A stretch of DNA of 64,000 nucleotides, taken from contig CAVRTO010000011.1 of the NCBI GenBank assembly GCA_963724145.1, positions 6,970 to 70,969 of the forward strand. Direction: 5' to 3'. Positions 1 through 64,000 of this stretch are shown piece by piece. The notes below the pieces were generated by a model. It saw only the letters and a list, made by a program, of their open reading frames with translations, was not told the DNA's origin and made no database searches. Position 1 is the stretch's first letter; each line of letters begins with the position of its first letter. The position numbers and the translations under genes were made by a program. Source of the stretch: an uncultured Solirubrobacteraceae bacterium (lineage in GTDB: Bacteria; Actinomycetota; Thermoleophilia; Solirubrobacterales; Solirubrobacteraceae).

Positions 1-282
1 GTCCTGGACGGCGCCATGCCGGAGCTCGACGTTCGCATGCTGCTCGAGCTGGCGCCGCCCGCTGTCCCGCAGGTCGGCGGGCTTCACGCGGTCGTGCCCG
101 AGCAGTCCGCCGACGCCCTGGGAGACGGCGTTCGCCGGCCGGTCGTCGTCCACCACGAGCACCCGCTTCCTCGCCCGGCCGAGCACGAGCGCCGCGCTCA
201 GGCCCGCGGGCCCGCCGCCGACGATCACGGCGTCGTACGGTGCGCTGCGCCAAGCATCAAGGGGACGAAGCCGGTCGGTCAT
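1..282 (-). CDS. FAD/NAD(P)-binding pyridine nucleotide-disulfide oxidoreductase (thioredoxin-reductase-like), N-terminal part; gene continues beyond the window start
   Basis: Reverse translation from ATG (complement of 280-282) gives MTDRLRPLDAWRSAPYDAVIVGGGPAGLSAALVLGRARKRVLVVDD..., a GxGxxG Rossmann dinucleotide-binding motif followed by an acidic residue. Confidence 0.6.
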   Translation of the reverse strand, partial: MTDRLRPLDAWRSAPYDAVIVGGGPAGLSAALVLGRARKRVLVVDDDRPANAVSQGVGGLLGHDRVKPADLRDSGRRQLEQHANVELRHGAVQD

Positions 283-299
283 CACACATCAGACGCCGC

Positions 300-339
300 A
301 ACCCCCGGATTCATCCCCCTGCCGGGAGATCCGGGGGTT
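300..339 (-). terminator. Hairpin (11-bp perfect stem AACCCCCGGAT/ATCCGGGGGTT) just downstream of the FHA gene stop
   Basis: Perfect inverted repeat read directly; lies between the stop of the 392-901 gene and the start of the next minus-strand gene. Confidence 0.35.
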
Positions 340-391
340 AGCCGCACCTCGACCAGCGCGCCCGAGCGGCGTCGGCGGCGGGGCCGGGACG

Positions 392-901
392 TCACATCAG
401 CTGCACGAGGCAGGCCCCGAGCACCACGGCGTCGCCCGGAACGACGGGCTCGGCGCGTTCGACCGGCCTTCCATCCACCCACGTCCCGTTGCTCGATCCC
501 AGGTCGCGGACGTACCAGCCGTCCGCCGTTCGCCGAAGCGCCGCGTGCGACCGCGAGACGGTGGCATGCCTGAGCACGACATCGCAGGACCGGCTCCGGC
601 CGAGCACCACCGCGCGAGCTCCGACCAGCTCGAGCGGCAGGCGAACCCCTTCCGTGGGAACCGGGAGCGGCGGGGCACGACGGCCGACCCGCCATTGCTT
701 GAAGCGACCGGCGATGCCGACCGCGGGCAGGTCCGCCGTCAGCCCGGCGAGCTGCTCGACGTGCTTCGCGCGATACACGTCCCCGAGTCGGCGCTCGAAG
801 GTGTCGAAGCTCAGATACCCCTCGTCACAGCGCCGCCGCAGCAGGTCTGCGGCACGCTCGCGCGCTCGTTCCGACGCCCGCATGCCTGCATCCTGCAACA
901 T
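392..901 (-). CDS. DUF1707-like N-terminal domain plus FHA domain protein
   Basis: ORF track 169 aa. The N-terminus RASERARERAADLLRRRCDEGYLSFDTFERRL resembles DUF1707. The C-terminus LGRSRSCDVVLRHATVSRSHAAL...GWYVRDLGSSNGTWVDGRPV is a typical FHA core. Confidence 0.8.
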   Translation of the reverse strand: MLQDAGMRASERARERAADLLRRRCDEGYLSFDTFERRLGDVYRAKHVEQLAGLTADLPAVGIAGRFKQWRVGRRAPPLPVPTEGVRLPLELVGARAVVLGRSRSCDVVLRHATVSRSHAALRRTADGWYVRDLGSSNGTWVDGRPVERAEPVVPGDAVVLGACLVQLM

Positions 902-934
902 CGGCGCGCGCCGGTCCAGCGAGCCGGCATCGGC

Positions 935-1495
935 CTACGGGACTCGGACCGGGGTGCTCGCGAGCAAGGCTGCGCCCATGCCCGCGAACGCCGCGGCGCG
1001 AACGCCGGCCGCGATCAGCTGAACGCCCTCGCCGGCGCCCTGGGTCGCGGCGACGAGGACCACGCCGAGGGCCAGCAGCCAGCCGGTCCACGCCGGCAGC
1101 ACGGCAGCTCGCACGACGGCCACGCCGAAGCCGATCCCGCTGACGACCATCAGGATCCCCGGGACGGTCAGCCAGAGCCCGAGGTCGTCGCTCAACGTGT
1201 CGTAGTCGGGTGAGCTGTCCACGAGCGCGTAGATCACCGTTCCCGTGAAGGCCACGTAGACGAGCGCATACACCACGGCGCTCCACAGCCCGAGGCGCCC
1301 GATGCGCGGCAGCTGGCAGCGGTACAGACCCCAGACGAAGAACGGGACCGCCGCCTCGGCGATCAGCGTCAGGACCAGCTGCCAGTCGGAGAATCCCCCC
1401 TGCGCCGCCTCGACGACGTCGCTGGCGAAGTAGAGCACCGAGAAGAACAGCGCGGCAGCACCGGTCACCGTCGCCAGGTCGCGGTCACGCGGCAC
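935..1495 (-). CDS. Hypothetical integral membrane protein (about 5-6 predicted TM helices)
   Basis: 186-aa ORF with alternating hydrophobic stretches (FFSVLYFASDVV, LVLTLIAEAAVPFFVWGLY, LWSAVVYALVYVAFTGTVIYAL, etc.). Protein-like composition, unlike the overlapping frames. Confidence 0.6.
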   Translation of the reverse strand: MPRDRDLATVTGAAALFFSVLYFASDVVEAAQGGFSDWQLVLTLIAEAAVPFFVWGLYRCQLPRIGRLGLWSAVVYALVYVAFTGTVIYALVDSSPDYDTLSDDLGLWLTVPGILMVVSGIGFGVAVVRAAVLPAWTGWLLALGVVLVAATQGAGEGVQLIAAGVRAAAFAGMGAALLASTPVRVP

Positions 1496-1980: not shown

Positions 1981-4953
1981 TCAGACGGTGGCGTCGAGCC
2001 CGAGCCGGTGCGCGACGCCCGCGGCCTCGGTCCGCGAGCGCACGTCGAGCTTGGCGAGGATCCGCGACACGTGGACGCTCGCGGTCTTCTCGGCCATGTA
2101 GAGCTGGCGGCCGATCTCGCGGTTCGTCGCGCCGGCGGCGACCAGCGCGAGCACCTGGCGCTCGCGCGGCGTGAGGCCGAACGGATCCTCGTCCTCGGTG
2201 TCGTCGGTGCCCTCCGCGCCCGCGCTGCCGTCGCCGGCCAGCCGTAGCCGCGCACGCGCCGCGAGGCTCTGGACCTCGCCCTCGAGCCATGCGGCGCCGA
2301 GCCGCTCGGCGGTCTCGACGGCCTCCGACGCCGGCGCGGCCGCGGCCTCGCGGTCGCCCTCGGCGACGAGCGCCTCGGCCTGGCGCCAGCGCGCGCCCGC
2401 CGCGAGGTAGGGCCGGTCGAGCGCCGCCCAGCTCGCCGCCGCCGCGTCCCAGCGCGCCGCCTGGTCGGAGCCGACGGCGCGGCAGTGGTCGGCCTCGGCA
2501 TGGGCGAGGTAGGCGAGCTCGAGCGCCCCGCCGTCCTCCGCGCACGCGCGCACCCGCGCCACCAGGAGGTCGGCGTGCGTGACCGCGAGGTCGGCCGCGG
2601 CCACGTCGCCGACGTCGCGCGCCTGCTGCGCCGCGGTCGCCTCGGCCGCGAGCCCGGCGGTGCTGACCATCGCCATGCGCAGCGCGTCGTCGGAGCAGAA
2701 CTCGATCCGGTCGAGCGCCTCGTCGACCGCCGCGCGCGCGGCCGCGGTGTCGCCGGCGCGCGCCGCGAGCTCCGTCTGGAGCGCGCCGAGCACGCCCAGG
2801 TACTGCGGCTCGCGCGAGTCGACGGCGACCTCGGCGGCACGGGCGAGCTGCGCCCGCGCCTCCTCGCACTCGTCGCGCGCGAGCGCCAGCTCGGCCCGCC
2901 GCAGCGCGACCTCCAGCTCCCAGTTGCCGCCGGTCAGCCGCCGCCGCGCGACCTCGGCGAGCGCGGCGTCCGCCGCCTCCCAGTCGCCCGAGTCGAACGA
3001 CTGCTGCGCGATCAGCAGCGACAGCCAGCCCTGTCGCGTCGGCAGCGAGGCGAGCTCGGCGTGGCCGGCGCGGGCCACGTCGAGCGCCTCCGCCGTCCGG
3101 CCCGCCAGGTGCAGCGCGTCGCTCATGTTCACCGAGGTGGAGGCGATGTCCTGCAGGTGCCCGCGCTCGCGCGCCATCGCGAGCGCGCGGCCCAGCGTCT
3201 CGGCGCCCTCGTCGACCGCGCCGATCGCCATCTGCGAGACGCCGAGCGCGTTGAGCGCGCCGATCTCGTCGACGAAGTAGCCGTCCGGGTCGGTCAGCGC
3301 CGCGTGCTCCTCCAGCGCGCGGCGCGCCTCGCGCACGGCGCGGTGGTAGCGCGACTGCAGCGTCAGCGTCTTCGCGTGACGGGCGAGCAGCCCGGCGCGC
3401 TGCGGCGACGGCTCGTCCTCGGCCACCAGCGCGAGCCCCTGCTCGAGCTCCTCCATCGCCTCGTCCTGGCGCAGCAGCGTCCACAGCGACCGGTGCAGGA
3501 GCCCGTGGATCCAGGCCACGCGGCGCGGGGCCTGCTCGGGGTCGACGAGCTTCAGCGCGCGCCGCGCGAGCGTGACCGCGCGGCCCGGGTCGTCCGCGTA
3601 GACGTGGCAGCCGGCGGCGCGCTCGAGCAGGTCGACCTGGTCGCTGCCGGTCAGCCCGGCCGCGTCCGGCACGCGGTCCCACAGCTCGAGCGCGCGCTCG
3701 AACAGCGTCGCCCCCTCGCCGAAGGCCTGGACGTCCATCGCCGCCATGCCCGCGCGCACGGCGGCGGCCAGCGCCGCCGGCTGGTCGCCGGCGGCCAGAT
3801 AGTGGTGGGCGATCGCCGCGGCGCGCTGGGCGCCGGTCTCCGGGCCGTCGGATCCCGACAGCGCGGCCGCGAGCGCCCGGTGCAGCTCGGCGCGCTCGCC
3901 GGGCAGCAGGTCGTCGTGGACGGCCTCGGCCATCAGCGCGTGGCGCAGCGTGTAGCGCTCGCCGTGGAGCACGACGATGTGCGCCGCCATCGCCTCGCGC
4001 AGCCCGTCGCGGAGCGCCCGCCGGTCGAGCCCGCTGACCTCGGCGAGCAGCGCGTCGTCGAGCACGCCGCCGGCGGAGAGCACCCGGACGACCTCCTGCG
4101 CGTCGTCGCCGAGCCGGTCGATCCGCAGCGCGAGCGCGGCCGCGAGGCTCGGCGGGAGCGAGCCGCGCCCGTCGGTCCCGGCGGCCAGCAGCTCCTCGGT
4201 GAACAGCGGGTTGCCCTCGCTGCGCGCGTACAGCCGCTCGACGAGCGCCGCGTCGGGCGCGGCGCCGAGGATGTCGCCGAGCTGCTCGGCGAGCTCGTCG
4301 CGGCTGAGCCCCGCGAGGTCGATCCGCACTGCGCGGACCCGCTCCAGCTCCGCGAGCAGCGGCCGCAGCGGGTGCCGCCGGTGCAGCTCGTCCGGCCGGT
4401 AGGTCGCGACGATCAGCAGCGGCTCGGTCGAGAGCGTCGCGGCGAGGAAGCGGAGGAACGCGCGCGTCGACGCGTCGGCCCAGTGGAGGTCCTCGATCAC
4501 CAGCAGCACCGGGGTCTCGCGCGCGAGCCCGTCGAGCACCGCGAGCAGCGCCTCGAAGACGCGCGCCTGGTCGCCCGCGCCGCGCTCGTGCCCGCGGACC
4601 GTGGCGGCGAGCCCGGGCAGCAGCGTGGCCAGCTCGGCGCGGATGTCGTCCGGCAGCGCGTCGAGCACCGGGTCGGCATCGCGCACCAGCGGGCGCAGCG
4701 CGGTCACCAGCGGGGCGTAGGCCAGCTCGCCCTCGCCGAGCTCGACGCACTCGCCGCTCAGCACGCGCGTGCCGTCGGCGGTCGCGCGCGTCTCGAGCTC
4801 GGCGACGAGCCGGCTCTTGCCGACGCCCGACTCGCCGACCACGAAGGCGAGCGACGGCTGCCCGCCCGCCGCGTCGGCGAGCGCGGCCTGGAGCTGCGCG
4901 AGCTCCAGCGCGCGGCCCACGATCCGTTGCGAGGTGACGCCGGTGGCCATCAC
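1981..4953 (-). CDS. Large ATP-binding LuxR-family regulator (LAL/MalT-like: N-terminal AAA P-loop, TPR-like middle, C-terminal LuxR HTH)
   Basis: 990-aa ORF with Walker A VVGESGVGKSRL, Walker B LLVIEDLHWAD and the C-terminal LTPRERQVLALVAAGATNREIGRQLYMAEKTASVHVSRILAKL. Confidence 0.85.
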   Translation of the reverse strand: MMATGVTSQRIVGRALELAQLQAALADAAGGQPSLAFVVGESGVGKSRLVAELETRATADGTRVLSGECVELGEGELAYAPLVTALRPLVRDADPVLDALPDDIRAELATLLPGLAATVRGHERGAGDQARVFEALLAVLDGLARETPVLLVIEDLHWADASTRAFLRFLAATLSTEPLLIVATYRPDELHRRHPLRPLLAELERVRAVRIDLAGLSRDELAEQLGDILGAAPDAALVERLYARSEGNPLFTEELLAAGTDGRGSLPPSLAAALALRIDRLGDDAQEVVRVLSAGGVLDDALLAEVSGLDRRALRDGLREAMAAHIVVLHGERYTLRHALMAEAVHDDLLPGERAELHRALAAALSGSDGPETGAQRAAAIAHHYLAAGDQPAALAAAVRAGMAAMDVQAFGEGATLFERALELWDRVPDAAGLTGSDQVDLLERAAGCHVYADDPGRAVTLARRALKLVDPEQAPRRVAWIHGLLHRSLWTLLRQDEAMEELEQGLALVAEDEPSPQRAGLLARHAKTLTLQSRYHRAVREARRALEEHAALTDPDGYFVDEIGALNALGVSQMAIGAVDEGAETLGRALAMARERGHLQDIASTSVNMSDALHLAGRTAEALDVARAGHAELASLPTRQGWLSLLIAQQSFDSGDWEAADAALAEVARRRLTGGNWELEVALRRAELALARDECEEARAQLARAAEVAVDSREPQYLGVLGALQTELAARAGDTAAARAAVDEALDRIEFCSDDALRMAMVSTAGLAAEATAAQQARDVGDVAAADLAVTHADLLVARVRACAEDGGALELAYLAHAEADHCRAVGSDQAARWDAAAASWAALDRPYLAAGARWRQAEALVAEGDREAAAAPASEAVETAERLGAAWLEGEVQSLAARARLRLAGDGSAGAEGTDDTEDEDPFGLTPRERQVLALVAAGATNREIGRQLYMAEKTASVHVSRILAKLDVRSRTEAAGVAHRLGLDATV

Positions 4954-4990
4954 GACGGAGGATCGCAGAGCGCGCGGGCGGCGCCCGGCG

Positions 4991-9758: not shown

Positions 9759-10392
9759 ATGACGCGCGCGCACGCGAGGACGCCGCTCTGGGTCAAGGCC
9801 GGCGCGGCCGCGGCGCTGCTCGCCGCTGCTCGCGTGGTGGGGCGCGACGTGGCACGACACGCGCGCCAACGAGCGCCGGCTCGGCGCGATCGCCTCGCAG
9901 ATCGCCGGGCGCACGGTCGCGGTCCACTGCCCCGGGCCGGTCGGCCGGCTGATCGGGTGGGACATCGTCGAGGGCAGCGTCCGCTTCGCCGCCGACGGCA
10001 CGCCGGACGACGAGACGAAGCTCCGGGAGACGGCGTGCGCCGAGCTCGACGCGCTGGCCGAGGGCCGCCGCGGCGCGGAGCTCGCCTGCACCGAGCGGGC
10101 GGGGATCGCCTGCGGCCGGCACGGGCGCGCGACCGCGATGGCGGTCGACGTGCTCGCCCACGAGTCCTGGCACCTGCGCGGGGTGATCGACGAGGGCGAG
10201 ACCGAGTGCCGCTCGCTGCAGACGATGGCGTGGACCGCCGCGCAGCTCGGCGCGACGCCCGCCCAGGGCGCGGCGCTGGCGCGCGCGCAGCTCGAGGGCG
10301 GCTACCTCGACCTGCCCGAGCGCTACCGCGACCCGCGCTGCGCCGACGGCGGGCCGCTCGACCTGCGGCCGGACGACCCGGCGTTCCCCTGA
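9759..10392 (+). CDS. Hypothetical membrane-anchored/secreted HExxH protein (putative metallopeptidase-like); apparent 1-nt frame disruption near 9825-9835
   Basis: ATG at 9759 encodes MTRAHARTPLWVKAGAAAALLAAA (signal/anchor). The protein-like sequence continues one frame on: WWGATWHDTRANERRLGAIASQIAGRTVAVHCPG...AVDVLAHESWHLRG. The track only shows its ATG-limited tail at 10138-10392. Confidence 0.5.
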
Positions 10393-16563: not shown

Positions 16564-17059
16564 ATGCCGGACGACCTGGTCGCCGTCGTCGAGATCCCCA
16601 AGGGGAGCTCGAACAAGTACGAGTGGGATCCCGAGCTGGGGGCGATCAAGCTCGACCGGCTCCTGTTCTCCTCGCTCGGCTACCCGACCGACTACGGCTT
16701 CTTCCGCGACACGCTCGCGGCCGACGGCGATCCGCTCGACGCGATGATCGCCGTCTCCGAGCCGACGTTCCCGGGCTGCCTGATCGAGGTCAAGCCGGTC
16801 GCGCTGTTCCGGATGCGCGACCAGAAGGCGGAGGACAACAAGATCCTCTGCGTCCCGCACACCGACCCGAACTGGTCGCACATCGAGCGGCTCGACGACC
16901 TGCCGATGTCGCTGCGCGACGAGATCTCGCACTTCTTCTCGATCTACAAGACGCCCGAGTGGAAGGTCGTCAAGGTCGACGGCTGGTACCCGCGCGAGGA
17001 CGCGCTGGAGTCGATCGAGCGGGCCCGTCGAGCGCTGGCGCGCGACGCAGGCGGGCTAG
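16564..17059 (+). CDS. ppa: Inorganic pyrophosphatase (family I); in-frame stop missing, end placed at an out-of-frame TAG assuming one extra G in the run at 17053-17055
   Basis: VVEIPKGSSNKYEWDPELGAIKLDRLLFSSLGYPTDYGFFRDTLAADGDPLDAMI...RMRDQKAEDNKILCVP. As given, the frame stays open to 18504, antisense to two real genes. Confidence 0.8.
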
Positions 17060-24442: not shown

Positions 24443-24447
24443 TGTCG
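24392..24447. terminator. 12-bp perfect inverted repeat CGACATCAACGC...GCGTTGATGTCG (32-nt loop) between convergent gene ends
   Basis: Read directly. A third direct copy of GACATCAACG lies at 24311-24320. Confidence 0.3.
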
Positions 24448-24454
24448 TCCGGCG

Positions 24455-24679: not shown

Positions 24680-26103
24680 GGCCAGCCCGGACAGGCTAGG
24701 ACCCGCGCCCGACGGATCCGGATCGGTCGGGTCGGGCGGACGGGCAGCAGCGCCGTCGGCGAGGCGGAGCACCAGGCGGGCGCGCGCTCGGGCCTCGGCG
24801 ACGCTCGCCAGCGGCGTGCCGTGCTCGTCCTCGACGAGGGCGTAGCCGCGCTCGAGGGTGCGCTGCGGGTCGTGCGCGTCGAGCGCGAGCCGGAGCCGCT
24901 CGAGCGTCTCCGCGCGGCGCGCGAGCGCGACGGCGCGGCCGTGGTCGAGCGCGGCGGCGTCGGCGTGCGCGCGGGTCGCCCCGCGCGCGAGGCCGAGCTG
25001 CGCGGCGGCCGACCGTCGCTCGAGCACGGCCGCGCCGCCGGCCACCGTCCGGTGCTGCGGCGGCGAGGCCGCGGCGGGCGCTGGCGCGGAGCTCGCGCAG
25101 GTGCTGATGCAGCCGGGTGCGGTGGCGTGCGACGTGCGAGGCCGGCGCGCGCGAGAGCCGGGCGAGCGTGCGCGCGCGCTCGACGATCGCGCGCCGGCCC
25201 TGCTGCTCGAGCCGGGCCGCGAGGCCGTGGAGCTGCGCGCGGGCGGCGACGCAGTCGACCGGGACGGCGGCCTCGGCCGCGTGGGTCGGCGTCGAGCACG
25301 AGACCGCGGCGACGTCGTCGATCAGCGTCCGGTCGGTGTGGTGGCCGACGGAGGCGATGACGGGCACGCGCAGCATCGCCACGGTCCGGCACAGCGTCTC
25401 GTCGCAGAAGGCGAACAGGTCGGCGAGCGAGCCGCCGCCGCGCGCGACGATGATCGCGTCGACCTCCTCGCAGGCCGCCAGGTCCTGCAGCGCGCGGGTG
25501 ACCGCGGGAGCCGCGCGGCGGTCCTGGACCGGCGCGAACGCCCACACGACCCGCCCGGCCCAGCCGCGCCGGCGCAGCCCGGCCAGCACGTCGTCGCGCG
25601 CCTTGCCGCCCTCGCCGGTCACGACCCCGATGCAGCGCGGGAGCGCGGCGCGCGGGAGCCGCTTCTGCGGCTCGAACAGCCCCTCGGCGTGGAGCGCGCG
25701 GCGCAGCCGGTCGAGCTGCGCGAGCAGGTCGCCCTCGCCGGCGACCCGCACGTCGGTGACGGTGAAGGAGAAGGCCGGCGACGCCGCGCGCGAGCCCGGG
25801 TAGAAGTCGCAGCCGCCCGCGGCCACGACGCGCATGCCGTCGGCGAGCGGCGCCGCGAGCCGGTCGAAGTCCTCGCGCCACATCGAGCACGGCAGCGCCC
25901 CGCGCGCGTCGCGCAGCTCGAACCACACCCGCGCGCGCCCCGCCCGCAGGTTGAACACCTCGCCGAAGATCTGCACGCGCGCGAGCGCGCGCAGCCGGTC
26001 GCGCAACCGGTCGGCGTACTGGCCGACCGGCCACGGTCCGGTGAGGCTCGAGCCCGGGTATGCCGTCGGGCCGCGCGGTGCCGGCTGGGTCCTCGGGATG
26101 CAT
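24676..26103 (-). CDS. xseA: Exodeoxyribonuclease VII large subunit; needs about 3-4 single-base frame changes to read through
   Basis: OB-fold N-terminus QYADRLRDRLRALARVQIFGEVFNLRAGRARVWFELRD; catalytic region IGVVTGEGGKARDDV...IIVARGGGSLADLFAFCDE...VPVIASVGHHTDRTLIDDVA; C-terminus ...DPQRTLERGYALVEDEHG in another frame. ATG at 26103 (MHPEDPAG) is in a third frame. Confidence 0.75.
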   Translation of the reverse strand: MHPEDPAGTARPDGIPGLEPHRTVAGRPVRRPVARPAARARARADLRRGVQPAGGARAGVVRAARRARGAAVLDVARGLRPARGAARRRHARRGRGRLRLLPGLARGVAGLLLHRHRRAGRRRGRPARAARPAAPRAPRRGAVRAAEAAPARRAPALHRGRDRRGRQGARRRAGRAAPARLGRAGRVGVRAGPGPPRGSRGHPRAAGPGGLRGGRRDHRRARRRLARRPVRLLRRDAVPDRGDAARARHRLRRPPHRPDADRRRRRGLVLDADPRGRGRRPGRLRRRPRAAPRPRGPARAAGPARDRRARAHARPALARAGLARRTPPHPAASAPARAPRQRPPRPRRRSTGRWPAARPCSSDGRPPRSSASRAGRPARTPTPPRSTTAAPSRSRAARRRSSGSGSRSTRTTRSAPSSAATPSSRTSTARRWRASPRPERAPAWCSASPTALLPVRPTRPIRIRRARVLACPGWP

Positions 26104-43969: not shown

Positions 43970-46221
43970 ATGGGCAAGACCCTCGTCATCGCAGAGAAGC
44001 CGTCCGTCGGCCGCGACCTGTCGCGCGTGCTCCCGGGCACGTTCCAGAAGCACGAGGGGTACCTGGAGTCCGACGACCACATCATGACGTGGGCCGTCGG
44101 GCACCTCGTCCAGCTGGCCGAGCCCGACGAGTACGACCCCAAGTACAAGAAGTGGCGGATGGCGGACCTGCCGATCGTGCCGGACGAGTTCCGGCTGGTC
44201 GTGCGCGACGAGCGCTCGAAGAAGCAGATGAGCGTCATCACCAAGCTGCTCAGGCGCGCCGACGTCGACCGCGTGGTGAACGCCTGCGACGCGGGGCGCG
44301 AGGGCGAGCTGATCTTCGCCTGGACGTTCGAGAAGGCCGGCGCGGACAAGCCGGTCGACCGGCTGTGGCTGTCCTCGATGACCACGGCGGCGATCCGCTC
44401 GGCGCTCGGCGACCTGCACCCCGCGTCCGACTACGCGCGGCTGGAGGAGGCGGCGCGGTCGCGCTCCGAGGCCGACTGGATCGTGGGCATGAACGCGACG
44501 CGGGCGGCGACGATCCGGCTGCGCTCGTCGTTCGACGGCGCGGTCTCGCTGGGCCGGGTCCAGACCCCGACGCTGGCGCTGATCGCGCGCCGCGAGGAGG
44601 AGATCCGCGCGTTCAAGCCGGAGGCCTACTGGCTCGTCGACGCGCGCTTCGAGCCCACCGACGGCGAGCCCGGCCGCGCGTACGCCGGCCGCTTCCACGC
44701 CGGCGCGCAGCCGCGCCTGAAGACCGCGGCCGAGGCGGAGGCGATCGTCAGCCGCCGTCCGCGGCCAGGCGGGCACGATCACGAAGCTCGAGAAGACGAC
44801 GAAGAAGGAGCGCGCGCCGCTCCTCTACGACCTGACCACGCTCCAGCGCGAGGCGAACAACCGCTTCGGCTTCTCCGCCCGGCGCACGCTCGCCGCCGCC
44901 CAGCGGCTCTACGAGGAGCACAAGGCGCTCACGTACCCGCGGACGAACTCGCGCTTCCTGACCGGCGACATGGCCGGCGAGATCAAGCCGACCGCGGAGC
45001 TCGTCGGGCACAACAAGGAGTACGCGCGCGGCGCCGCCTACGTCACCGGGCTCGACACGCTCCCGCTCGGGCCGCGTGATCAACGACGCGAAGGTCACCG
45101 ACCACCACGCGATCATCCCGACGAAGGCCGAGCACCGCGATCGACAAGATGTCCGACGACGACCGGCGCATCTACGACATGGTCGCGCGCCGCTTCCTCG
45201 CCGATCTTCCACCCCGAGGCCGTGTTCGAGAACACGCGGCTCGAGACGACCGTGGCCGAGCACGTGTTCCGCACCCGCGGGCGCGTCCTGGTCGTGCCGG
45301 GCTGGCGCGGGGTGTACGGCGAGGGCTTCGAGGACCGCTCGCGCTCCGACGAGGACGAGGGCGACGACCAGACGCTGCCGAAGGTCGAGCAGGGCGAGGC
45401 GACGCGGACGCTCGAGGTCGGCTCCGAGGAGAAGGAGACCAAGCCGCCGCGGCGCTACTCCGACGCGTCGCTGCTGGCGGCGATGGAGACCGCGGGCAAG
45501 CTCGTGGACGACGACGAGCTGCGCGAGGCGATGAAGGACTCGGGGATCGGCACGCCGGCCACGCGGGCCGCCATCATCGAGCGGCTGATCGACGTCGCCT
45601 ACGTCGAGCGCGACGGGCGCGCGCTCGTCTGCACCGAGAAGGGCCTGAACGTGGTCCGGCTGCTCGACGGGCACCCGCTGACCTCGCCCGGGCTGACCGG
45701 CGAGTGGGAGCACCGGCTCGGGCGGATGGAGACCGGCGCGGAGACGCGCGAGAAGTTCATGCACGACATCGCGGACTTCGCGCGCGGGACCGTCGGCGAG
45801 CTCGACGCGAAGCTCAAGGAGGTCCGGATCCCGCGGGCCAACCTCGGGCCGTGCCCCGTCTGCGGCCAGGACATCGTCGAGAACCGCAAGGGCTTCTCGT
45901 GCTGGTCGCGCGAGGATCCGGGCTGCGGGTTCGTGATCTGGAAGAGCAAGGCCGGCAAGACGCTGCCGCATGGCGGTCGCGAAGGAGCTGATCGCCACGG
46001 GGCGGACCGCGCGCCCGGTCACCGGCTTCAAGGGCCGCTCGGGGAAGTCGTTCCGGGCGCGGCTCGCGCTGCAGCAGGCCGAGGACGGCAAGTGGCGCGT
46101 CGAGTTCGACGAGCCGTGGGCGCGCTCCGGCGCGCGGCCGCCGGAGTCGGACGACCCGGCGGCGGGCGGCGGCGGCGACGCCGAGACGCCCGCGACGGCG
46201 GCGGCGGTCGAAGCGGCCTAG
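43970..46221 (+). CDS. topB: DNA topoisomerase III-like type IA topoisomerase; five apparent single-base frame disruptions (about 44752, 45072, 45138, 45198, 45968)
   Basis: TOPRIM LVIAEKPSVGRDL...VNACDAGREGELIF; active-site ALTYPRTNSRFL; VINDAKVTDHHAIIPT; zinc ribbon CPVCGQDIVENRKGFSCW; C-terminal repeat GRTARPVTGFKGRSGKSFRARLAL. The pieces lie in successive frames (track ORFs 43970, 44970, 45076, 45149, 45970). Confidence 0.8.
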
Positions 46222-46934: not shown

Positions 46935-49867
46935 GTGCCGCTGACGCTCATCACCGGGCCCGCCAACGCCGCCAAGGTCGGCGCCGTCCTCGAGCGCCTG
47001 CGCGCCGCGCGCCCGCGCGACCCGCTGCTGGTGGTCCCCACCGCGGCCGACGTCTCCCACTACCAGCGCGAGCTCGCGAGCTCGAACATCGTCTTCGGCG
47101 CGGAGGTGCTCACCTTCGCGCGCCTGATCCGCGAGATCGCGCGCCGCACGAAGCTGCGCGCGCGGCCGCTCGGGTGGACCGCGCGCGACCGCGTCGTCCG
47201 CGCGGCGGTCGCCGGCGTCCCGCTGCGGGAGCTGGCCGCGTCCGCCGGCACGCCCGGGTTCGCCGACGCGGCGGGGCGGCTGTTCGCCGAGCTCGAGCGC
47301 GGCCGCGTCGAGCCGGCGCGGTTCACCGCGGCGCTGCGCACCTGGGCGGCCGGCGGCTCGCGCTCGGCGTACGCCGGCGAGCTCGGCGCGCTCTACTCGG
47401 CCTACCGCCGCACGCTCGAGGAGCTCGGCCGCCCGTCGCTCGAGGGCTACGCCTGGGCGGCGCTCGACGCGCTGCGCGCCGACCCGGCGGTCTGGGCGCG
47501 GCGCCCGGTGTTCCTGTACGGATTCGACGACCTCACGCCGACCGAGCGCGACGCCGTCGAGACGCTGAGCGGGCACGCCGAGGCCGACGTCTGCCTCGCG
47601 CTGCCCTACGAGCCGGGCCGGGTCGCGTTCGCCGGCCGCGCCGCGACCGTCGAGGAGCTGCGGCCGGTCGCCGCCGAGGTCGTCCACCTGCCGGAGCGCT
47701 CCGAGCACTACGCCCCGAGCGCCCGCCGCGCGCTGCACCACCTCGAGCGCTCGCTGTTCGAGCCGGCGCCCGACCGGCGCCCGCCGAACGGCGCCGTGCG
47801 GCTGCTCGAGGCCGGCGGCGAGCGCGCGGAGGCCGAGCTCGTCGGCGCCGAGGTGCTCGAGCTGATGCGGCAGGGCATCGCCGCGCCGGACATCGCGGTG
47901 CTGCTGCGCGGCGACGCGGGCGTGACCGCGCTGTTCGCCCAGGTCCTGGCCGGCTACGGGATCCCGGTGAGCCACGACCGGCGCGTCCCGCTCGGCCGCA
48001 CGCGGCTCGGCGCGGGCGTCCTCGCGGGGGCGAGGGCGGCGCTCGAGCGCGGCACCGCCGCCGAGCTGCTGACCTGGCTCCGCACGCCCGGCAGGCTGCC
48101 CGACCCCGAGCCCGCCGACCGGCTGGAGGCGCACGTCCGCCGCAACGGGATCACGCAGCGCGCGGGTCGCCCGCGAGGTGTGGGAGACGCGGCTCGGGCA
48201 GCCGGAGCTGACCGCGCTCGACCGGCTCGCCGCGGCCGCCGGCGAGGGCGCCGAGGCGCTGCTCGCCGCGATCGAGGCGGAGGCGCAGGCGATCTGGACG
48301 GCGCCGCACCGGCGCCGCGCCGAGGTGCTCGCCCCGGAGGACCTGGCCGACGCGCGGGTGGCGCGCGACCTGCGCTCCGCCTGCTCCGAGCTGCGCGGGC
48401 TGGCCGCCGCCGACCCCGACCTGCTCGGGCCGCCGGGCGACGTGATCGACGGGCTCGCGCCGGTGCGGGTGCGCGAGCCGTCCGCGCTGTCGGGCAGCGA
48501 GCCCGGCGTGCTGCTCGCCGATCCGCTCGCGATCCGCGCGCGGCGGTTCCGCGCGGTGTTCGTCTGCGGGCTGCAGGACGGCGAGGTGCCGCGCCGCCCC
48601 GAGCCGGAGCCGTTCCTGTCGGACGACGATCGCCGCGCGCTCGCCGTCGCCACCGGCCTGCGGCTGCCGCCGCACGAGGACGTGCTCGACCGCGAGCGGT
48701 CGCTGTTCTACGCCGCGGTGTCGCGCCCCGAGGACGTGCTCTTCCTCTCCTGGCGCTCGTCGGACGAGGAGGGCAACCCGGCCGCGCCGTCCGTCTTCGT
48801 CGACGACGTGCGGGCGCTGTTCGACGACTCGCTCTGGGAGCAGCGCGGGACGCGGCTGCTCGCCGACGTGACCTGGACGCCGCGCGACGCGCCGACGCCG
48901 CACGAGCTGCGGCGCGCCTACGCCGCGGCGCGCAGCGAGCCGGATCCCGACCCGCTCGGCGCGCCCGAGACCGAGGCGCTGCTGGCGATCCTCGCGGCGC
49001 GCGACACCGAGCCGGCGCGCGGGCTGGAGGCGTTCGCGGCCTGCGGCGTCCGCTGGCTGATCGAGCAGTTCCTCCACCCGGAGCGGATCGAGCCCGATCC
49101 CGAGCCGATGCAGCGCGGCTCGCTCGCGCACGCCGTGCTCGAGCGGACGCTCGCGCTGCTGCGCGAGCGCACCGGCTCGGCCGCGATCGTCCCCGAGCGG
49201 CTGGACGACGCGCTCGCGGCGCTGCGGGACGCGCTCGACGAGCGCATCGGCGGCCGCGGCCGCGCGCGGCGCCGTGCGCTGCTGCGCGGGCTCGAGGCCG
49301 ACCTGGAGCGCTACCTGCGCACGGAGGCCGAGCACGGCGCCGGCTACGAGCCGGAGGCGCTGGAGTGGTCGTTCGGCCGCCCCGAGGACCCGCACGGGCC
49401 GCTCCCGCTCGGCGCGGGCGCCGGCGCGGTGACCGGCCGGGTCGACCGGATCGACCGCGGCCCGGGCGGCGCCGCGATCGTGCGCGACTACAAGGGCCGC
49501 ACGGCGGTCGGCGGCGCGAAGTGGGAGGACGACCTGCAGCTGCAGGTGCCGCTCTACCTGCTCGCCGTGCGCGAGCTGCTCGGGCGCGAGCCGGTCGCCG
49601 GGCTCTACCAGCCGCTCGCCGGCCGCAAGCTCGACGCCCGCGGCCTCGTCCGCGACGACGTCCCCGGCGACTACGTCCGCACCGACAAGGTCGACGCCGC
49701 CGGCTTCGACGACGCGCTCGAGGCCGTCCGCGCGCTCGCGGCGCGGACCGCCGCCGAGCTGCACGCCGGGCGGATCCGGCCGTGTCCCGGAGCGCTGCTC
49801 GAACCGCGGCTGCCGGTATCCCGCGATCTGCCGCGCGGGCGAGCCGCGCAACGAGCCGCCGGCATGA
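46935..49867 (+). CDS. addB: AddB-type helicase-nuclease subunit (degenerate P-loop N-terminus, C-terminal PD-(D/E)XK nuclease with Cys cluster); frame disruptions near 48160 and 49795
   Basis: GTG start MPLTLITGPANAAKVGAVLERL...; second frame ...LFLSWRSSDEEGNPAAPSVFVDDV...RGSLAHAVLE...VTGRVDRIDRG...AAIVRDYKGR; third frame RCSNRGCRYPAICR then a TGA overlapping the addA ATG (ATGA). Confidence 0.75.
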
Positions 49868-52800
49868 GGGGCACGCCCGAGCAGCGCGCGGCGATCGCCG
49901 ATCGCGAGGGGTCGTCGCTGCTGGCGGCGGGGGCCGGCTCCGGCAAGACCGCGGTGATGGTCGAGCGGTTCGCGGAGGCGGTGCTCGAGGACGGCGTCGC
50001 CGTCGGCGCGATCCTGACGCTGACCTTCACCGAGAAGGCGGCCGCCGAGCTGCGCGAGCGGATCCGGCGCCGCTTCGCCGAGCTGGGCGAGATGGAGCAC
50101 GTGCGCGCGGTCGACGCCGCCTGGATCGGGACGATCCACGGCTTCTGCGCCCGGGTCCTGCGCAGCCGCCCGCTGGCCGCGGGGCTCGACCCGCGCTTCG
50201 GCGTGCTCGACGAGGCCGCCCAGCGGCGGCTCGCCGCGGAGGCGTTCGAGGCGGCGCTGGAGACGTGGATCGCGCGCCAGGGCAACCCGGCCGTCGACCT
50301 CGCCGCGGCCTACGGCCGCGAGCTGGAGCCGATGGTCACCGGCGCGCACGCCACGCTCCGCAGCCGCGGGGCGGCCCATCCGCGGCTGCCCGTGCCGCCG
50401 CCCCAGCCGCCGCCCGACCCCGCGCCGCTGGCCACGGCCGCCGCGGTGGCCGCCGCCGCGCTCGCGACCGCCGGGGCCGGCGTCCGCGTCGGCCAGGCGC
50501 GCGACGGCGCTGGAGGCCGCCGAGCGGATCGCGACCGCCGGCGGTGAGCCGCCGCTGCCCGGTGCGCTCGACGCGGCGAAGCTCGGCAGCGGCGCGAAGG
50601 CGCTCGAGGATCCCGCCTGCGGCGCCTACCGCGAGGTCTGGGCCGCGTACCGCGAGGCGTGCGCGTCGTACCACGCGCAGCCCGCGCTCGCCCTGCTCGA
50701 CGCGCTGCTCGACGCGTTCGGCACGGCGTACGCGGCGGCCAAGGCGGCGCGCGCCGCGGTCGACTTCGACGATCTCGAGCTGCGCGTCCGCGACCTGCTC
50801 GCGGATCCCGCCCAGCGCACCCGCTGGGCCGAGCGCTTCGCGCTGATCATGGTCGACGAGTTCCAGGACACGAACCGGCTCCAGCTCGACGTGCTCGAGG
50901 CGCTGGAGCGCGACAACCTGTTCGCGGTCGGCGACGAGGCGCAGTCGATCTACGGCTTCCGCCACGCGGACGTGCGCATCTTCCGGGCGCGGCGCGCCGC
51001 GCTCGACGCGTCACGCGTGCGCAGCCTCACCGTCAACTTCAGGTCGAGACAAGAGATCCTGGCGGTGGTCAACGCCGCGATCGGGCCGCTGCTCGGCAGC
51101 GGCTTCACGCCGCTCGTCCCGGGCCGCGCGCCGGAGGTGCTGCGGCTGTTCGAGCCCGACCCGCCCGGCCCGCCGGCGGTCGAGCTGCTGGCCGTCGAGA
51201 CCGCCGGCTGGGACCAGCGCGCGGCCGACCTCGGGCTCGGCACGCTCGCCGCGCAGCCATGGCGCCGCGCGGAGGCCCGCGCGGTCGCAGCCCGGCTGCG
51301 CGAGGAGGTCGACGCCGGCCGCCCGCAGCGCGACGTCGTCGTGCTCGTCCGCGCGACGAGCTCGCTGCGGCTCTACGAGCAGGCGCTGGAGGAGGAGGGC
51401 CTGAGCACCTACGTGGTCGGCGGCCGCGGCTACTGGGCGCAGGAGCAGGTCCGCGACGGCATCGCCTACCTGTCGCTGCTCGCCAACCCGCACGAGGAGG
51501 GCGCGCTCTACGCGGTGCTGTCATCGCCGTTCTGCGGCGTCGGCACCGATGCGCTCGCGCTGCTGGCCGACGCGGCCCGCCGCGAGGGCGAGCGCGCGTG
51601 GCCCGCGCTGCGGCGCGCGGTCGCCGAGCGCCCGCCGTGGTTCGAGGCGCTGCCCGGGGACGCGGCGGCCCGGCTCGCCGGCTTCGCCCGCTTCGCGGCG
51701 GGCGAGCGGCTGCGCGGCGAGCGGCTGCCGGTCGAGGTGCTGCTCGAGCGCGCGATCGCCCACACCGGCTACGACCTCGCGATCCTCGCCCGCGCCGGCG
51801 GCGACCGCCGGCTCGCGAACCTGCGCAAGCTGATGCGGCTCGCGCGCGAGTACGAGCGCGCGGAGGGCCGCGACCTGCGCGGCTTCCTCGGCTACGCCGT
51901 CGGCCAGGATCTCGCCGAGGCGCGCGAGGGGGAGGCGGCGCTCGAGTCCGAAGGCCTCGACGCCGTGCGGCTGATGACGATCCACCGCGCCAAGGGGCTC
52001 GAGTTCCCGGTCGTCTGCGTGGCCGACCTCGGGCGCACCGGCGCGCTGGGCCGCGACCGGCTGCTGATCGGCGAGGACGGCGACGCCGGGCTGCGGCTGC
52101 TCACGCTCGCCGGCGGGGAGCCGGTGCCGGCGCTCGGGTGGGAGCGGATCGCCGCCGCGCTGGCCGAGGCCGAGGCGGCCGAGGAGCGGCGCCTGCTCTA
52201 CGTCGCCGCCACCCGCGCGGAGGAGCGGCTGATCCTCTCGGGCGGCATCGACACCGCGAAGTGGCCCGTCCCGCGCGGCGGCGCGCCGCCGATCGACTGG
52301 CTCGCGCCCGCCCTGCTCGGCGGCAGCGGGCCGATCCCGGCCGACGCGACGGTCCCGTGCGGCGACGGGGCGGTCGCCGTCCGGCTGCTCGCGGCCGAGG
52401 ACGGCATCCCCGCGCCCGCCCCGCGCGAGCGTCGCAGCTCGCCGGGCACCGCGCTGCCCGCCGAGCCGAAGGTGATCCCGGTGCCCGCGCGCCCCGCGCC
52501 GGCCCAGCGCCGGCTCTCGTACTCGTCGCTCACCGACTACGCCCGCTGCGGCTACCGCTTCTACCTCACGCGCGAGCTCGGGCTGCCGCGCGTCACCCCG
52601 CCGGGCGAGATCGTGCCCGCCGCCGACGAGCCTGCGGACGCCGAGCCCGACGTCCGAGGCGGTCACCGGCGAGCCGCCGCCGCTCGACAAGCTCGTCCGC
52701 GGCTCGCTCGTCCACGCGCTGCTCGAGGACCTCGACTTCGCCCGCCCGGAGCCGCCCGACGACGCCACGGTGCTCGCGCTCGGCGAGCGCGCCGGGCTCG

Positions 52801-53402: not shown

Positions 53403-54274
53403 CCCTCCGGCAGCTCCGGCGACCGGCGCAGGTCGATCACCGCGTTCAGCTCCGCGCCGAACAGCAGCACGACGTTCGCCAGCCAGAGCCAGATCAGCAG
53501 GATCACCGCGCCGGCGAACGCGCCGTAGGTCGCCGAGTACGACGAGAAGTTCGAGACGTAGAAGAAGAACGCGCCCGAGGCGACGATCGTCACCAGGACG
53601 CCGAAGATCGGCGCCCGGGGTGAGCCAGCGGAAGCGCGGCACGTCGACGTTGGGGGCGGCGTAGTAGAGGATCGCGTAGATCGTCATCACCCCGAGCAGC
53701 GCCAGCGGCCAGCGCACGATCGACCAGACGGTCCCGAACTCGGAGCCGAGGCCGATCGCGTCGAAGATGTCGGTCGCGAGGCCGCCGCCGAGGAACAGCA
53801 GCACGAACGTCACCAGCGCCATCGCCAGCACGACCAGCGTCCAGCCGACGTTGTGCGCCTTGCGGCGGACGAACCCGCGGCCCTCCTCGACGCGCCAGAT
53901 CTTGTTGAGCGCGCGCCCGGCGGCCGCGAACGCGCCCGACGCGCCGTTGAGCGAGATCACCAGGCCGATCACGAACGCGCCGACCGCGGTGCCGCGCTGC
54001 GACTGCGCCGACTCGAGCGCGGCTGGTCACCGAGTTCACCGTCGACTCGGGCGCGCCGGCGTCCGTGAGTACGGTCCGCGGCGTCGTTGATGAGCCCCTG
54101 CTGGCCGAAGATGCCGAGCGCGGCCACCGCGAACAGCAGCGCCGGGAACAGCGACAGCAGCGAGTAGTACGTGAGCGCGGCCGCGTTGTCCGTGATCTGG
54201 TCGTCCTGGAAGCGCTTGAAGGCGGCCTTCAGGTCGCCCAGCCTGAATGCGCTGCCCTGACGCCGTTCGGACAT
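53357..54274 (-). CDS. YihY/BrkB (ribonuclease BN-like) family membrane protein; three apparent frame disruptions (about 54068, 54022, 53613)
   Basis: MSERRQGSAFRLGDLKAAFKRFQDDQITDNAAALTYYSLLSLFPALL..., then ...GLVISLNGASGAFAAAGRALNKIWRVEE..., then ...VASGAFFFYVSNFSSYSATYGAFAGAVILLIWLWLANVVLLFGAELN in successive frames. The 3' end overlaps addA by 46 nt. Confidence 0.7.
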
Positions 54275-54927: not shown

Positions 54928-55032
54928 GTCACGGACGCAGTAGAATGTGGCGCAGTCGAGCCCAGCCACCCGCTCGACCCCATCCCGCGCCCCAACGCCC
55001 CGGCGCGCACAAGCCGAACGAGCTGCGTGACC

Positions 55033-60356: not shown

Positions 60357-60446
60357 GCCCGGGGGCGGCCGGCGGCGGGGCCTCGCGCCCCGTCGCCGCG
60401 CCGCGCTCCTCGTGGGCGGAGTCGCCGACTGCTAAACATCAGTTCG

Positions 60447-61507: not shown

Positions 61508-61509
61508 GC

Positions 61510-61686
61510 ATGAGCAGCGAGCCGTTCGACCAGCCCGATTCCGGCTATCCGGAGGAGGGCCCGCCGGGCGCCGCGCCCGACGACGCGTCCGAAGGCGACG
61601 AGTCGGCGGTGCGCGAGCAGTCCCGCACGGGCGGCGAGCCGCCCGGCAGCGAGGACGACAAGGCCACCGGCAACCCCAACACCTGA
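61510..61686 (+). CDS. Possible small acidic disordered protein (58 aa) just after csbD
   Basis: ATG 2 nt after the csbD stop. MSSEPFDQPDSGYPEEGPPGAAPDDASEGDESAVREQSRTGGEPPGSEDDKATGNPNT. Low complexity, so support is weak. Confidence 0.3.
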   Translation: MSSEPFDQPDSGYPEEGPPGAAPDDASEGDESAVREQSRTGGEPPGSEDDKATGNPNT

Positions 61687-61722
61687 CAGCGAGCGGCCCG
61701 CCCCCGGCGGGCCGTTTCGCGT

Positions 61723-63660
61723 CTAGCCCCGCGCCCGCAGCGCGAGCACGGCGATGTCGTCGCGCGGCGGCGCGGGCTCGCCGCGGAGCGCGGCCGCGAC
61801 CAGCCCGTCGGCCAGCGCCTGCGCCGAGCCGTCCGGGAGCGCGCCGAGGACCGCGTGCAGGTCGTCCGGGTCGAGCATGTGCTCGGGCGCCCGCGCCTCG
61901 GTCACGCCGTCCGTGTAGAGCAGCAGCGTGTCGCCCGCACCCATCTCCGCCATGCGGTCCTCGATCGCCGGATCGGCGACGAGGCCGAGCAGCGTGCCCG
62001 GGGCGCCGAGGTCCTCGACCTCGCCGCCTGCGCGCCGCAGCAGGGCGGGCGGGTGGCCGCCGCACGCCACCGCGAGCCGGATCCGCGGGCGCGACGTGTC
62101 GATGTGCACGCAGGCGATGGTGCAGAAGCGGCCGTCGCGGTCCTGGCGCAGCATCGCGTCGTTGAGCCAGCGCAGGATCGCGCCCGGCGAGCGCCGCCGC
62201 ACCGCCGCGCGTCCGGATCGTGTAGCGGGCCAGCGCGGTCACGGCCGCGGCCTCGGCGCCCTTGCCGCAGACGTCGCCGATGACCGCGATCCACTCGTCC
62301 TCGGCGACGGTGAAGAGGTCGTAGAAGTCGCCGCCGACGCCGTGCCGTCGCCGGCCGGGCGGTAGACGGCGCCGGCGTCGAGGCCGGTGATCTCCGGCAG
62401 CACCGGCGGCAGCAGCGAGTTCTGCAGCGTGCGCGCGATCGCCGAGCGCTGGCGGTACTGCTGCGCGCTGTCGATCGCGACGGCCGCCCGTCGCCCGAGC
62501 TCCTCGAGGACCCCCAGCTGCTCGGCGCCCAGGACGCGGCCGGACGTCGTGATCACCAGCGTCATGGCGCCCAGCGGCCGCCCGCGGACGGACAGCGGCA
62601 CGTTCGCCGAGCTGCGCACGCCGAGCTGCGTGACCAGCTCGCGGTGGCGCGGATCGACCGCGGCGCGCCGCAGGTGGGTCTCGTCGACGTGCGGATGGAG
62701 CTCGCTGCGGCCCGTGCGCGCGACCGCCGCCGGGCCCTCGGTGCCGGACACGTCGACGAGCAGGCCCTCCATGTCGCGGGCGAGCCCCGCGAGCGCCGGG
62801 TCGGCGTGGGCGACCGCCATGCGCTCGAGGCCGCGCTCGCCGATGACGTCGACCATGCACCAGTCGGCGAGCTCGGGCACGGCGAGCGACGCGACGTGGC
62901 GGAGCGTCTCCTCGTAGTCCAGCGACCCGGCCAGCGACCGGCTGGCTTCGGCCAGCAGCCGCAGCGTCGCCTCGACCTGCTTGAGGTCGGTGACGTCCTC
63001 GACGACGTTGATCGCCCGCGTCACCCGGCCGGCCGCGTCGCGCACCGGCTGTGCCTTCACGCGCATCCAGCGGGACGCACCGGTGGCGCGGACGCGGTAG
63101 CGCAGCGTCATCGGCTCGGGCGTCTCGCCCGCGAGCGCGCGCCGTCCCGGCAGGCGCTCGGCGGGGACCGGGCTCCCGTCCTCGGACAGGATCTCGAGCC
63201 GTGCGGCGATGTCGCGCGGGTTCGCGGCGAGGAGCGCCGCGCGGTCGGGGTAGCCGGACGGGATGCCGAGCAGCCGGACGGCGGCGTCGTTGACGTAGAC
63301 GAGCGTGCCGTCGGGGTCCTGGGCGAGCACGGCGTCCGCGACGCCGGCCAGGATCGCCTCGAGCTCGCGCCCGAGCCGCTCGCGCTCGTCGCGCTGCGAG
63401 CCGGGCTCGGCGCGCTCGTCCAGCGTGAGCACCGCGATCGGCGCCGCGCCGCCGGGCGGCTCGAAGCGCCCGCCCGACGCGGCCAGCATGCGCGGGCCGC
63501 GCGCGGTGTCGAGCGGGAACGGCGCGCCGCCGACCGCTGCGCCCGCGGCCACGCGCGCGTAGACGTCGCGCTCCTCCGCGACGGGGAACGCGCCGCCGGC
63601 CAGCCGGTGCGCCGCGTGGTTGGCGAACGCGACCCGCGCGGTCGCCGGGTCGATCAGCAA
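61723..63660 (-). CDS. PAS/GAF-sensor PP2C (SpoIIE/RsbU-type) serine phosphatase; two compensating frame disruptions (about 62335 and 62205), N-terminus unresolved
   Basis: PAS-like LEAILAGVADAVLAQDPDGTLVYVNDAAVRLLG; GAF-like LAVPELADWCMVDV...PLSVRGRPLGAMTLV; PP2C VGGDFYDLF...IAVIGDVCGKGAEAAAVTAL (middle frame) and FCTIACVHID...LLLYTDGVTEA. The open frame continues upstream of the TTG at 63660. Confidence 0.75.
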
Positions 63661-63746
63661 CAGCGGGGTCGGCAGGAGGTCGAGCAGCGGCCCGTAGCGG
63701 CCGCCGCTCGTCGTGGTGTCGGTCGCCGCCTCGATCGACCGGTCCC

Positions 63747-64000
63747 CTAGGCCAGGCCCTCGGCCTCGTACTCGCGCAGGTAGCCCTCGAACAGGCGGCG
63801 GTGGCCCTCCTCGTCGTGGAGGATCGCGATCACCATGTCCTGCGTCACGAAGTCGATGCCGTCGGTGAACTCGACGATGCGGTTGTAGTGCTCGATCGCG
63901 CCCGTCTCGGCCTCGATCACGCCCTTGATGACGTGCACGATGTCGGTCTGGTGCTCGGGCGGCTGCAGATAGCTGCTGCTCGGGCGGTGAAGTCCAGCGA
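63747..64000 (-). CDS. Ferritin-like/bacterioferritin-like protein, C-terminal part; runs off the window end
   Basis: ...LQPPEHQTDIVHVIKGVIEAETGAIEHYNRIVEFTDGIDFVTQDMVIAILHDEEGHRRLFEGYL, with ExxH-type di-iron ligand spacing. Confidence 0.5.
   Translation of the reverse strand, partial: AGLHRPSSSYLQPPEHQTDIVHVIKGVIEAETGAIEHYNRIVEFTDGIDFVTQDMVIAILHDEEGHRRLFEGYLREYEAEGLA

Follow-up and report, generated by a model that had tools for sequence, protein, structure and literature searches.

The stretch of DNA analysed here (64,000 nucleotides, hereafter the window; G000:C11:6970-70969) belongs to G000, a metagenome-assembled genome (MAG) of an uncultured Solirubrobacteraceae bacterium that comprises 4.96 Mb in 40 contigs with 74% G+C. 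Comparison with related sequences indicates that the frame breaks scattered over the conserved genes of this window are very probably single-base consensus errors of a long-read soil metagenome assembly and not gene decay. As biology, the frame breaks are not a real feature, and their value lies in what they imply for the annotation of this genome and its sister MAGs.

Single extra bases break the frames of conserved genes

The initial annotation of the window listed 29 coding positions at which a conserved gene changes frame, all but one as if a single nucleotide had been added, and it offered assembly indel errors or massive pseudogenisation as the explanation. For comparison, we used five syntenic genomes of the same genus, one of ~93% identity (G005) and four of ~80-85% (G001, G003, G004, and G010). 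Blastn alignment gaps with a length that is not a multiple of three were clustered between the window and these genomes, and local multiple alignments were added. All 29 positions were recovered: the window has a base too many at 28 of them and a base too few at one. For 28 positions, the stated coordinate lies within ~10 nt of the actual event (Table 1). At each listed coding position, four or five of the five relatives lack exactly one base of the window, which is thus present only there in otherwise conserved coding sequence. The sole exception to the insertion pattern, given as 62335, is indeed a one-base deletion, located at 62342, where all five relatives carry one base more. The loss of the ppa stop codon is real, except that the responsible base lies at 17030/17031, ~23 nt upstream of the G-run (17053-17055) that had been named, and the stop loss of a supposed ParB-like gene does result from one extra G at 55881, while no Pfam match stands behind the ParB label.

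The reading frames themselves give the same picture. A codon-usage Viterbi path trained on G000 itself switches frame on the same strand at these sites, with no intervening stop codon, and the Pfam profiles of AddA (UvrD-helicase and PDDEXK_1), YihY/BrkB, and DJ-1 carry on across the jumps. No frame change is visible at 49788, because addB is there fused in frame to addA. The gene names given to ppa, pterin-4a-carbinolamine dehydratase (PCD), CorC, hbd, xseA, htpX, lysA, AddB, AddA, YihY/BrkB, STAS, DJ-1, and PP2C are backed by Pfam, and the gene labelled topB encodes a type IA topoisomerase. The essential genes lysA and ppa had been singled out as affected, and each does carry one extra base. 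Likewise, the genes described as intact are all single frames in the Viterbi path, namely the LuxR-type gene at 1984-4992, the GGDEF-EAL gene at 6480-8771, hom-thrC-thrB, and the penicillin-binding protein (PBP) gene. Outside these 29 positions, a ferritin-like gene on the edge of the window has its frame broken by two additional bases (63975/63982), and five single-base differences are intergenic, three of them extra (31711, 61687, and 63738) and two missing (38894 and 39532).

Same-species assemblies carry intact genes and insertions of their own

Contigs of the same species, 96-99% identical to the window, were found via exact-protein look-ups in five other ENA metagenome assemblies (ERZ25039547, ERZ25039586, ERZ25039588, ERZ25039536, and ERZ25039456). 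These contigs (L112-L115, L136, and L138-L140) jointly cover 5.7-46.2 kb and 47.5-64 kb of the window. For about 24 of the 31 coding events, none of the same-species contigs that span the site has the change. Private indels were counted over two aligned blocks of ~30 kb in total, in which the window has 17 insertions and 2 deletions, and the corresponding insertion:deletion counts are 12:1 for L113, 4:1 for L114, 5:2 for L136, 12:2 for L139, and 14:1 for L140. The private insertions of these contigs sit at places different from those of the window. ERZ25039547 contig_48587 (L112/L138), which serves as the clean reference, has a count of 0:2. In this contig the genes for HtpX (299 aa), LysA (418 aa), the topoisomerase (747 aa), the PBP (552 aa), DJ-1 (190 aa), the STAS protein of site 57140 (120 aa), PP2C (636 aa), and BrkB (304 aa) are all full length. 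The topoisomerase gene is intact throughout L112-L114 (747-748 aa), as are the yihY/BrkB gene in L136, L138, and L139 (304 aa), the DJ-1/PfpI gene in L136 and L138 (190 aa), and ppa in L115 (164 aa). G009, one of three short-contig MAGs of the genus used for comparison (with G002 and G007), also lacks the extra bases at 48152, 49788, and 50506, the addB and addA sites that it spans clearly, and its topoisomerase, addB, and addA genes are single frames. Tracts free of single-nucleotide polymorphisms (SNPs) that are common to the window and the same-species contigs never exceed ~1 kb, which is too short for a comparison of indels on an identical haplotype.

The affected genes remain under purifying selection. 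With frames taken from contig_48587, most codon differences from the window are synonymous in the broken genes (synonymous:non-synonymous 12:1 in lysA, 17:4 in the topoisomerase gene, and 17:9 in htpX), much as in their intact neighbours thrB (12:1) and hom (5:0). In the Viterbi path of the window, the frame pieces contain no nonsense codons and adjoin directly at the jumps. Furthermore, single-base differences private to the window number ~6 in ~6 kb between genes versus ~31 in ~57 kb within genes. This density is similar in both compartments, and the differences are therefore unlike real frameshift mutations under selection.

Most inserted bases differ from both neighbours

The spectrum of the events points to a consensus or basecalling process, because most inserted bases do not copy a neighbour and insertions exceed deletions. 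Natural single-base insertions arise mainly by slippage, which copies the neighbouring base, and bacterial indel spectra lean toward deletions. Among the 29 coding positions listed initially there are 28 insertion sites versus one deletion, and five assemblies combined hold 64 private single-base insertions versus 11 deletions. The inserted base differs from both of its neighbours in 78% of cases, as compared with 40% expected for random insertion. The commonest class places the complementary base inside GG or CC (GG→GCG, CC→CGC) and makes up 34% of events versus ~9% expected, an enrichment of ~4-fold. The same spectrum was seen in every error-bearing contig. Hence, of the initial suggestion of uncorrected long-read or homopolymer-prone data, the uncorrected long-read part fits and the homopolymer part does not.

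Frame breaks extend across the whole genome

To gauge the extent of the problem, we applied a codon-usage Viterbi detector of frame changes, which recovered 15 of the 31 known coding events of the window (~50% sensitivity) and gave one spurious call at the natural border of two genes. Since natural overlapping gene boundaries trigger the detector, as observed for lgt→lysA at 33661 and for addB→addA in G012, its rates are quoted beside those of control genomes. Across G000 it made 2,097 calls (4.2 per 10 kb, 83% of them +1), which fall on 39 of the 40 contigs; the window itself yields 2.5 per 10 kb. Of two relatives scanned as controls, the complete G019 (200 kb sampled) gave 0.2 calls per 10 kb, none of them +1, and the 97%-complete G012 (50 kb) gave 0.4. 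Pieces of short-contig MAGs (19 kb) gave 0-1 calls in total. Of the same-genus genomes, G003 gave 0 and G005 gave 5.0 per 10 kb. After correction for sensitivity and background, these values imply ~4,000 frameshifting errors in G000, or ~0.8 per kb, about every second gene.

The errors are moderately clustered: the variance-to-mean ratio is 1.5 over the whole genome (p ~1e-11) and reaches 1.9 within the window (p = 0.018). Many same-strand frame switches occur in the rpoB region (C4:1.5-7.6 kb). In that region, at a contig end, two Rpb2_6 matches lie 2.5 kb apart on one strand (G000:C4:1495-7625, minus strand) amid about ten frame switches, which may represent either a second copy of rpoB or an assembly end that was duplicated. 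The sister species genome G005 (G005:C3:44000-118000, L009-L012) is worse than G000, with 49 private single-base insertions over 9.8 kb of topoisomerase-addB-addA sequence. In the otherwise clean contig_48587, a strain-variable ABC-transporter stretch (L112:1-5150) stands in place of window 24.9-30.1 kb and contains ten frameshift calls in 5 kb, and the next 16 kb of that contig are without any real one. Error density is strongly local, which suggests a dependence on local read depth.

A long-read origin of the errors

Watson and Warr reportedly described gene-fragmenting indel errors in long-read assemblies in 2019. Errors of this type are also described in Nanopore or PacBio assemblies and MAGs (PMC12007338, Kastor; PMC8103633). 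The present case resembles them in its single-base indels across all genes, its split, truncated, and fused gene calls, the absence of the errors from short-read assemblies of relatives, and a marker-based completeness that is depressed despite high contiguity (only 76.5% estimated for G000, despite 4.96 Mb in 40 contigs). Among the same-genus genomes, G001 and G010 belong to the MFD-LR MAGs, the products of a pipeline that combines deep Nanopore-only sequencing, Flye --meta --nano-hq, and one Medaka round to lower indel errors, without short-read polishing (PMC12313526). G000, too, was most likely built from Nanopore reads alone. Very probably, its consensus has a false single-base insertion every 1-2 kb or so, and every such insertion shifts the frame and leads gene callers to split, truncate, extend, or fuse normal genes, with the actual genes of the organism being intact. 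Low or uneven read depth may be the cause of the errors.

Several observations weigh against this explanation. First, one or two of the other long-read contigs have the same extra base at seven of the sites, namely L115 at 18992, 21041, and 24750, L136 at 48152, 49788, and 62210, and both L136 and L140 at 57140. Other pairs of contigs have identical insertions as well, at three sites in L113/L114 and two in L136/L140, such that ~15-20% of events occupy identical positions in independent assemblies, unlike usual long-read artefacts. Purely random error does not predict such recurrence, and it must therefore reflect either systematic context-dependent miscalling or real alleles. Second, private insertions are missing from the 4.6 kb of the rRNA operon (G000:C32:366500-374050, minus strand; 16S, spacer, and part of 23S), whereas the mean rate predicts ~3; the operon of G005 is likewise without a private single-base insertion. 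A clean operon is compatible with error clustering, its lower G+C, and probably deeper coverage. Third, in contrast to the textbook Nanopore profile of homopolymer-length error, the insertion bias (6:1 to ~30:1) lies away from homopolymers and is enriched for GG→GCG/CC→CGC. Lastly, we infer the membership of G000 in a Nanopore-only project from its relatives.

Alternative explanations

The recurrent sites leave room for a mixed explanation, in which most breaks are artefacts and a recurrent subset are genuine frameshift alleles of the species, the candidates being the shift near the STAS start, the addB-addA fusion, and the altered C-terminus of PCD. Random errors have a negligible chance of coinciding at the seven sites in common with L115, L136, or L140, and at those of the other assembly pairs, and shifts at a gene end, such as those of 57140 and 18992, could be tolerated. 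On the other hand, 21041, 48152, and 62210 are mid-gene, the insertion at 49788 costs AddB its Cys-rich C-terminus, all same-genus genomes lack these bases, and G009 lacks those at 48152 and 49788. The base at 57140 occurs only on long-read contigs and is missing from two further long-read contigs and from both short-read-type contigs (L143 and L144, one MEGAHIT-style k141 and one JGI). The two short-read-type contigs have the intact 120-aa STAS gene, and the shifted 109-aa form is recorded only in a long-read contig, a pattern that favours systematic error, albeit on a very small sample. Recurrent context-dependent consensus errors explain the observations equally well, and we regard the mixed explanation as unlikely. 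A similarly doubtful idea is that the recurrent insertions and the GG→GCG/CC→CGC signature stem from a DNA modification or sequence motif of these Solirubrobacteraceae that systematically perturbs the nanopore signal, so that the "errors" map an epigenetic mark, or alternatively that a few of them (49788 and 57140) are real segregating alleles.

It is also conceivable that two co-occurring strains were collapsed during assembly, with both alleles of a SNP written next to each other, given that several strains of the species, 98-99% identical, occur across samples and that the insertions are clustered and do not copy their neighbours. The flanks of the insertions are otherwise identical. Mismatches within ±4 nt of the insertions amount to 0-1.8% versus a background of 0.8-1.5% in the same-species contigs, that is, without enrichment, and the side-by-side arrangement was rejected as very improbable.

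Massive pseudogenisation was the second option of the initial annotation. Reductive decay with mass pseudogenisation is known from Mycobacterium leprae and from recent endosymbionts, and the window does resemble those genomes in having many conserved genes with interrupted frames. The deposited sequence does physically contain the disruptions, the tRNA and the rRNA operon are clean, and a few sites are common to several assemblies, all of which would be in keeping with a genome in decay. Unlike reductive decay, there is no deletion bias (insertions prevail, and the inserted bases do not copy their neighbours), no sign of nonsense codons, large deletions, or relaxed selection, and little sharing by descent, as strains of the same species have intact genes and differing sets of breaks, so the lesions are mostly not inherited. 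The ~4,000 frameshifts implied genome-wide would also strike ppa, lysA, rpoB, and other core genes of a large G+C-rich genome that resembles those of free-living soil bacteria. With its genes under selection and its same-species copies intact, we consider real decay of this genome scarcely credible. The indel-error option gains support from the private sites, the insertions in sister assemblies, purifying selection, and the genome-wide spread.

Programmed +1/-1 ribosomal frameshifting, as in prfB, dnaX, and IS3-family transposases, depends on conserved sites with a slippery motif and a stimulator. Such frameshifting or other recoding has only the presence of frame jumps, with one protein over two overlapping frames, in its favour and is practically out of the question, being already contradicted by sites that are private to one assembly and conserved in no orthologue, by heterogeneous contexts that lack a common slippery motif, and by the number of sites, which reaches five in a single gene and thousands in the genome.

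Consequences for annotation

If the frame breaks are consensus errors, as we consider very probable, they matter only for annotation. About one third of the genes in the window are mis-called as split, truncated, extended, or fused, with the addB-addA fusion and the run-on open reading frames (ORFs) of ppa and the 301-aa protein as examples, and by extrapolation this would apply to about half of the genes in the 4.96 Mb of G000. The marker-based completeness of 76.5% is probably too low. Pseudogenes, fusions, and novel long ORFs reported from G000 should be held suspect until re-polishing, and the same is true of the 93%-identical G005. The non-neighbour-copying insertion signature could aid the polishing of G+C-rich long-read MAGs, and the main value of these findings is as a warning about G000 and its sister MAGs.

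Table 1. Differences in base number between the window and related sequences. Five relatives, the same-genus genomes G005, G001, G003, G004, and G010; L numbers, same-species contigs.
Position	Strand	Event	Gene and effect	Comparison
9824..9826	+	extra base	hypothetical gene 9760-10392 (210 aa; initially HExxH protein), 22 codons in	absent in L115, G005, G001, G003, G010
17030..17031	+	extra base	ppa (inorganic pyrophosphatase), 11 codons before stop; stop lost, ORF continues to 18504	absent in L115, five relatives
18992	+	extra G	PCD C-terminus; last 13 residues replaced, ORF extended	absent in G005, G001, G003, G004; present in L115
19568	+	extra base	CNNM-CBS-CorC gene; frame jump 19567/19569	absent in L115, five relatives
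21041	-	extra base	hbd (3-hydroxyacyl-CoA dehydrogenase), mid-gene	absent in five relatives; present in L115
24119	+	extra base	FHA-domain protein gene	absent in L115, five relatives
24750	-	extra base	xseA (exonuclease VII large subunit)	absent in G005, G001, G003, G010; present in L115
25058	-	extra base	xseA	absent in L114, L115, G005, G003, G010
26055..26059	-	extra base	xseA; placement ambiguous within 5 nt	absent in L114, L115, G005
27725	-	extra A	putative cell-wall-binding protein or lipoprotein gene (398 aa)	absent in L114, five relatives
30841	-	extra G	htpX (peptidase M48)	absent in L112, L113, L114, five relatives; intact in L112
31711		extra base	intergenic	absent in L112, L113, G005; present in L114
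34188	+	extra base	lysA (diaminopimelate decarboxylase)	absent in L112-L114, five relatives; intact in L112
38894		missing base	intergenic	one more base in L112-L114, G005
39532		missing base	intergenic, upstream of 97-aa gene	one more base in L112, L113, G001, G003, G010; not in L114, G005
44750	+	extra A	type IA topoisomerase, 1st of five	absent in L112-L114, five relatives, G009, G002, G007
45068..45071	+	extra base	type IA topoisomerase, 2nd of five	absent in L112-L114, five relatives, G009, G002, G007
45138	+	extra C	type IA topoisomerase, 3rd of five	absent in L112-L114, five relatives, G009, G002, G007
45201..45204	+	extra base	type IA topoisomerase, 4th of five	absent in L112-L114, five relatives, G009, G002, G007
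45969	+	extra C	type IA topoisomerase, 5th of five	absent in L112-L114, five relatives, G009, G002, G007
48152..48154	+	extra base	addB, between ADDB_N and PDDEXK_1 parts	absent in five relatives, G009; present in L136
49785..49788	+	extra base	addB, 27 codons before stop; Cys-rich C-terminus lost, in-frame fusion to addA	absent in L138, L139, L140, five relatives, G009; present in L136
50504..50507	+	extra base	addA, UvrD-helicase domain split (profile 2-133 then 168-264)	absent in L136, L138, L139, L140, G009
52650..52651	+	extra base	addA, PDDEXK_1 nuclease domain split (profile 1-28 then 29-243)	absent in L138, L139
53608	-	extra base	yihY/BrkB-family membrane protein gene, 1st of three; BrkB profile 1-42, 70-197, 198-258	absent in four same-species contigs
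54022	-	extra base	yihY/BrkB, 2nd of three	absent in four same-species contigs, G005, G001, G003, G010
54070..54073	-	net one extra base	yihY/BrkB, 3rd of three	absent in four same-species contigs, four relatives
55881	-	extra G	301-aa protein without Pfam match, near C-terminus; stop lost, ORF continues to 54322, antisense through sigma-factor gene	absent in L136, L138, L139, L140; relatives all stop here
57140	-	extra base	STAS (anti-anti-sigma) gene, two codons after start	absent in L138, L139, L143, L144; present in long-read L136, L140
59975..59976	+	extra base	DJ-1/PfpI gene (profile 1-51 then 56-165)	absent in four same-species contigs, four relatives
61687		extra base	intergenic	absent in four same-species contigs
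62210	-	extra base	PAS-GAF-PP2C (SpoIIE) phosphatase gene	absent in L138, L139, L140, five relatives; present in L136
62342	-	missing base	PAS-GAF-PP2C gene; only frame-breaking coding deletion	one more base in four same-species contigs, five relatives
63738		extra base	upstream of PP2C gene	absent in four same-species contigs, G005
63975..63982	-	two extra bases	ferritin-like gene	+2 versus L138, L139, L140, G005; +1 versus L136

Other features of the window

The stretch that separates the FHA-protein gene from the end of xseA (24297-24735) shows >20 small indels in 440 bp relative to L115 and is a hypervariable or poorly assembled spacer. The tRNA gene at 9636-9708 (minus strand, 73.7 bits) has no visible defect, and an extra A relative to L115 adjoins it at 9709. 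A c-di-AMP riboswitch of the ydaO/yuaA type (70 bits) lies at 28061-28206 (plus strand), upstream of the gene at 28218-28832.

The segment 54328-63747 encodes a partner-switching stress module. Its genes encode a pair of paralogous SigB-like sigma factors (54964-55854 and 60429-61268, ~75% identical to each other), two anti-anti-sigma proteins of the STAS type, an RsbW-like kinase (HATPase_c_2), a PAS-GAF-PP2C phosphatase, an ANTAR response regulator, and CsbD, DUF1360, and ferritin-like proteins.

Lastly, a 276-bp intergenic element at 46618-46893 is bounded by 37-nt terminal inverted repeats (89% complementary) and contains three 60-nt direct repeats around AACGTCGA...TCGACGTT palindromes. 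Similar sequences (70-80% identity) recur at numerous positions and in both orientations in G000 (C4, C18, C20, C22, C24, C26, and C32) and in its relatives, and the element looks like a mobile repeat akin to miniature inverted-repeat transposable elements.

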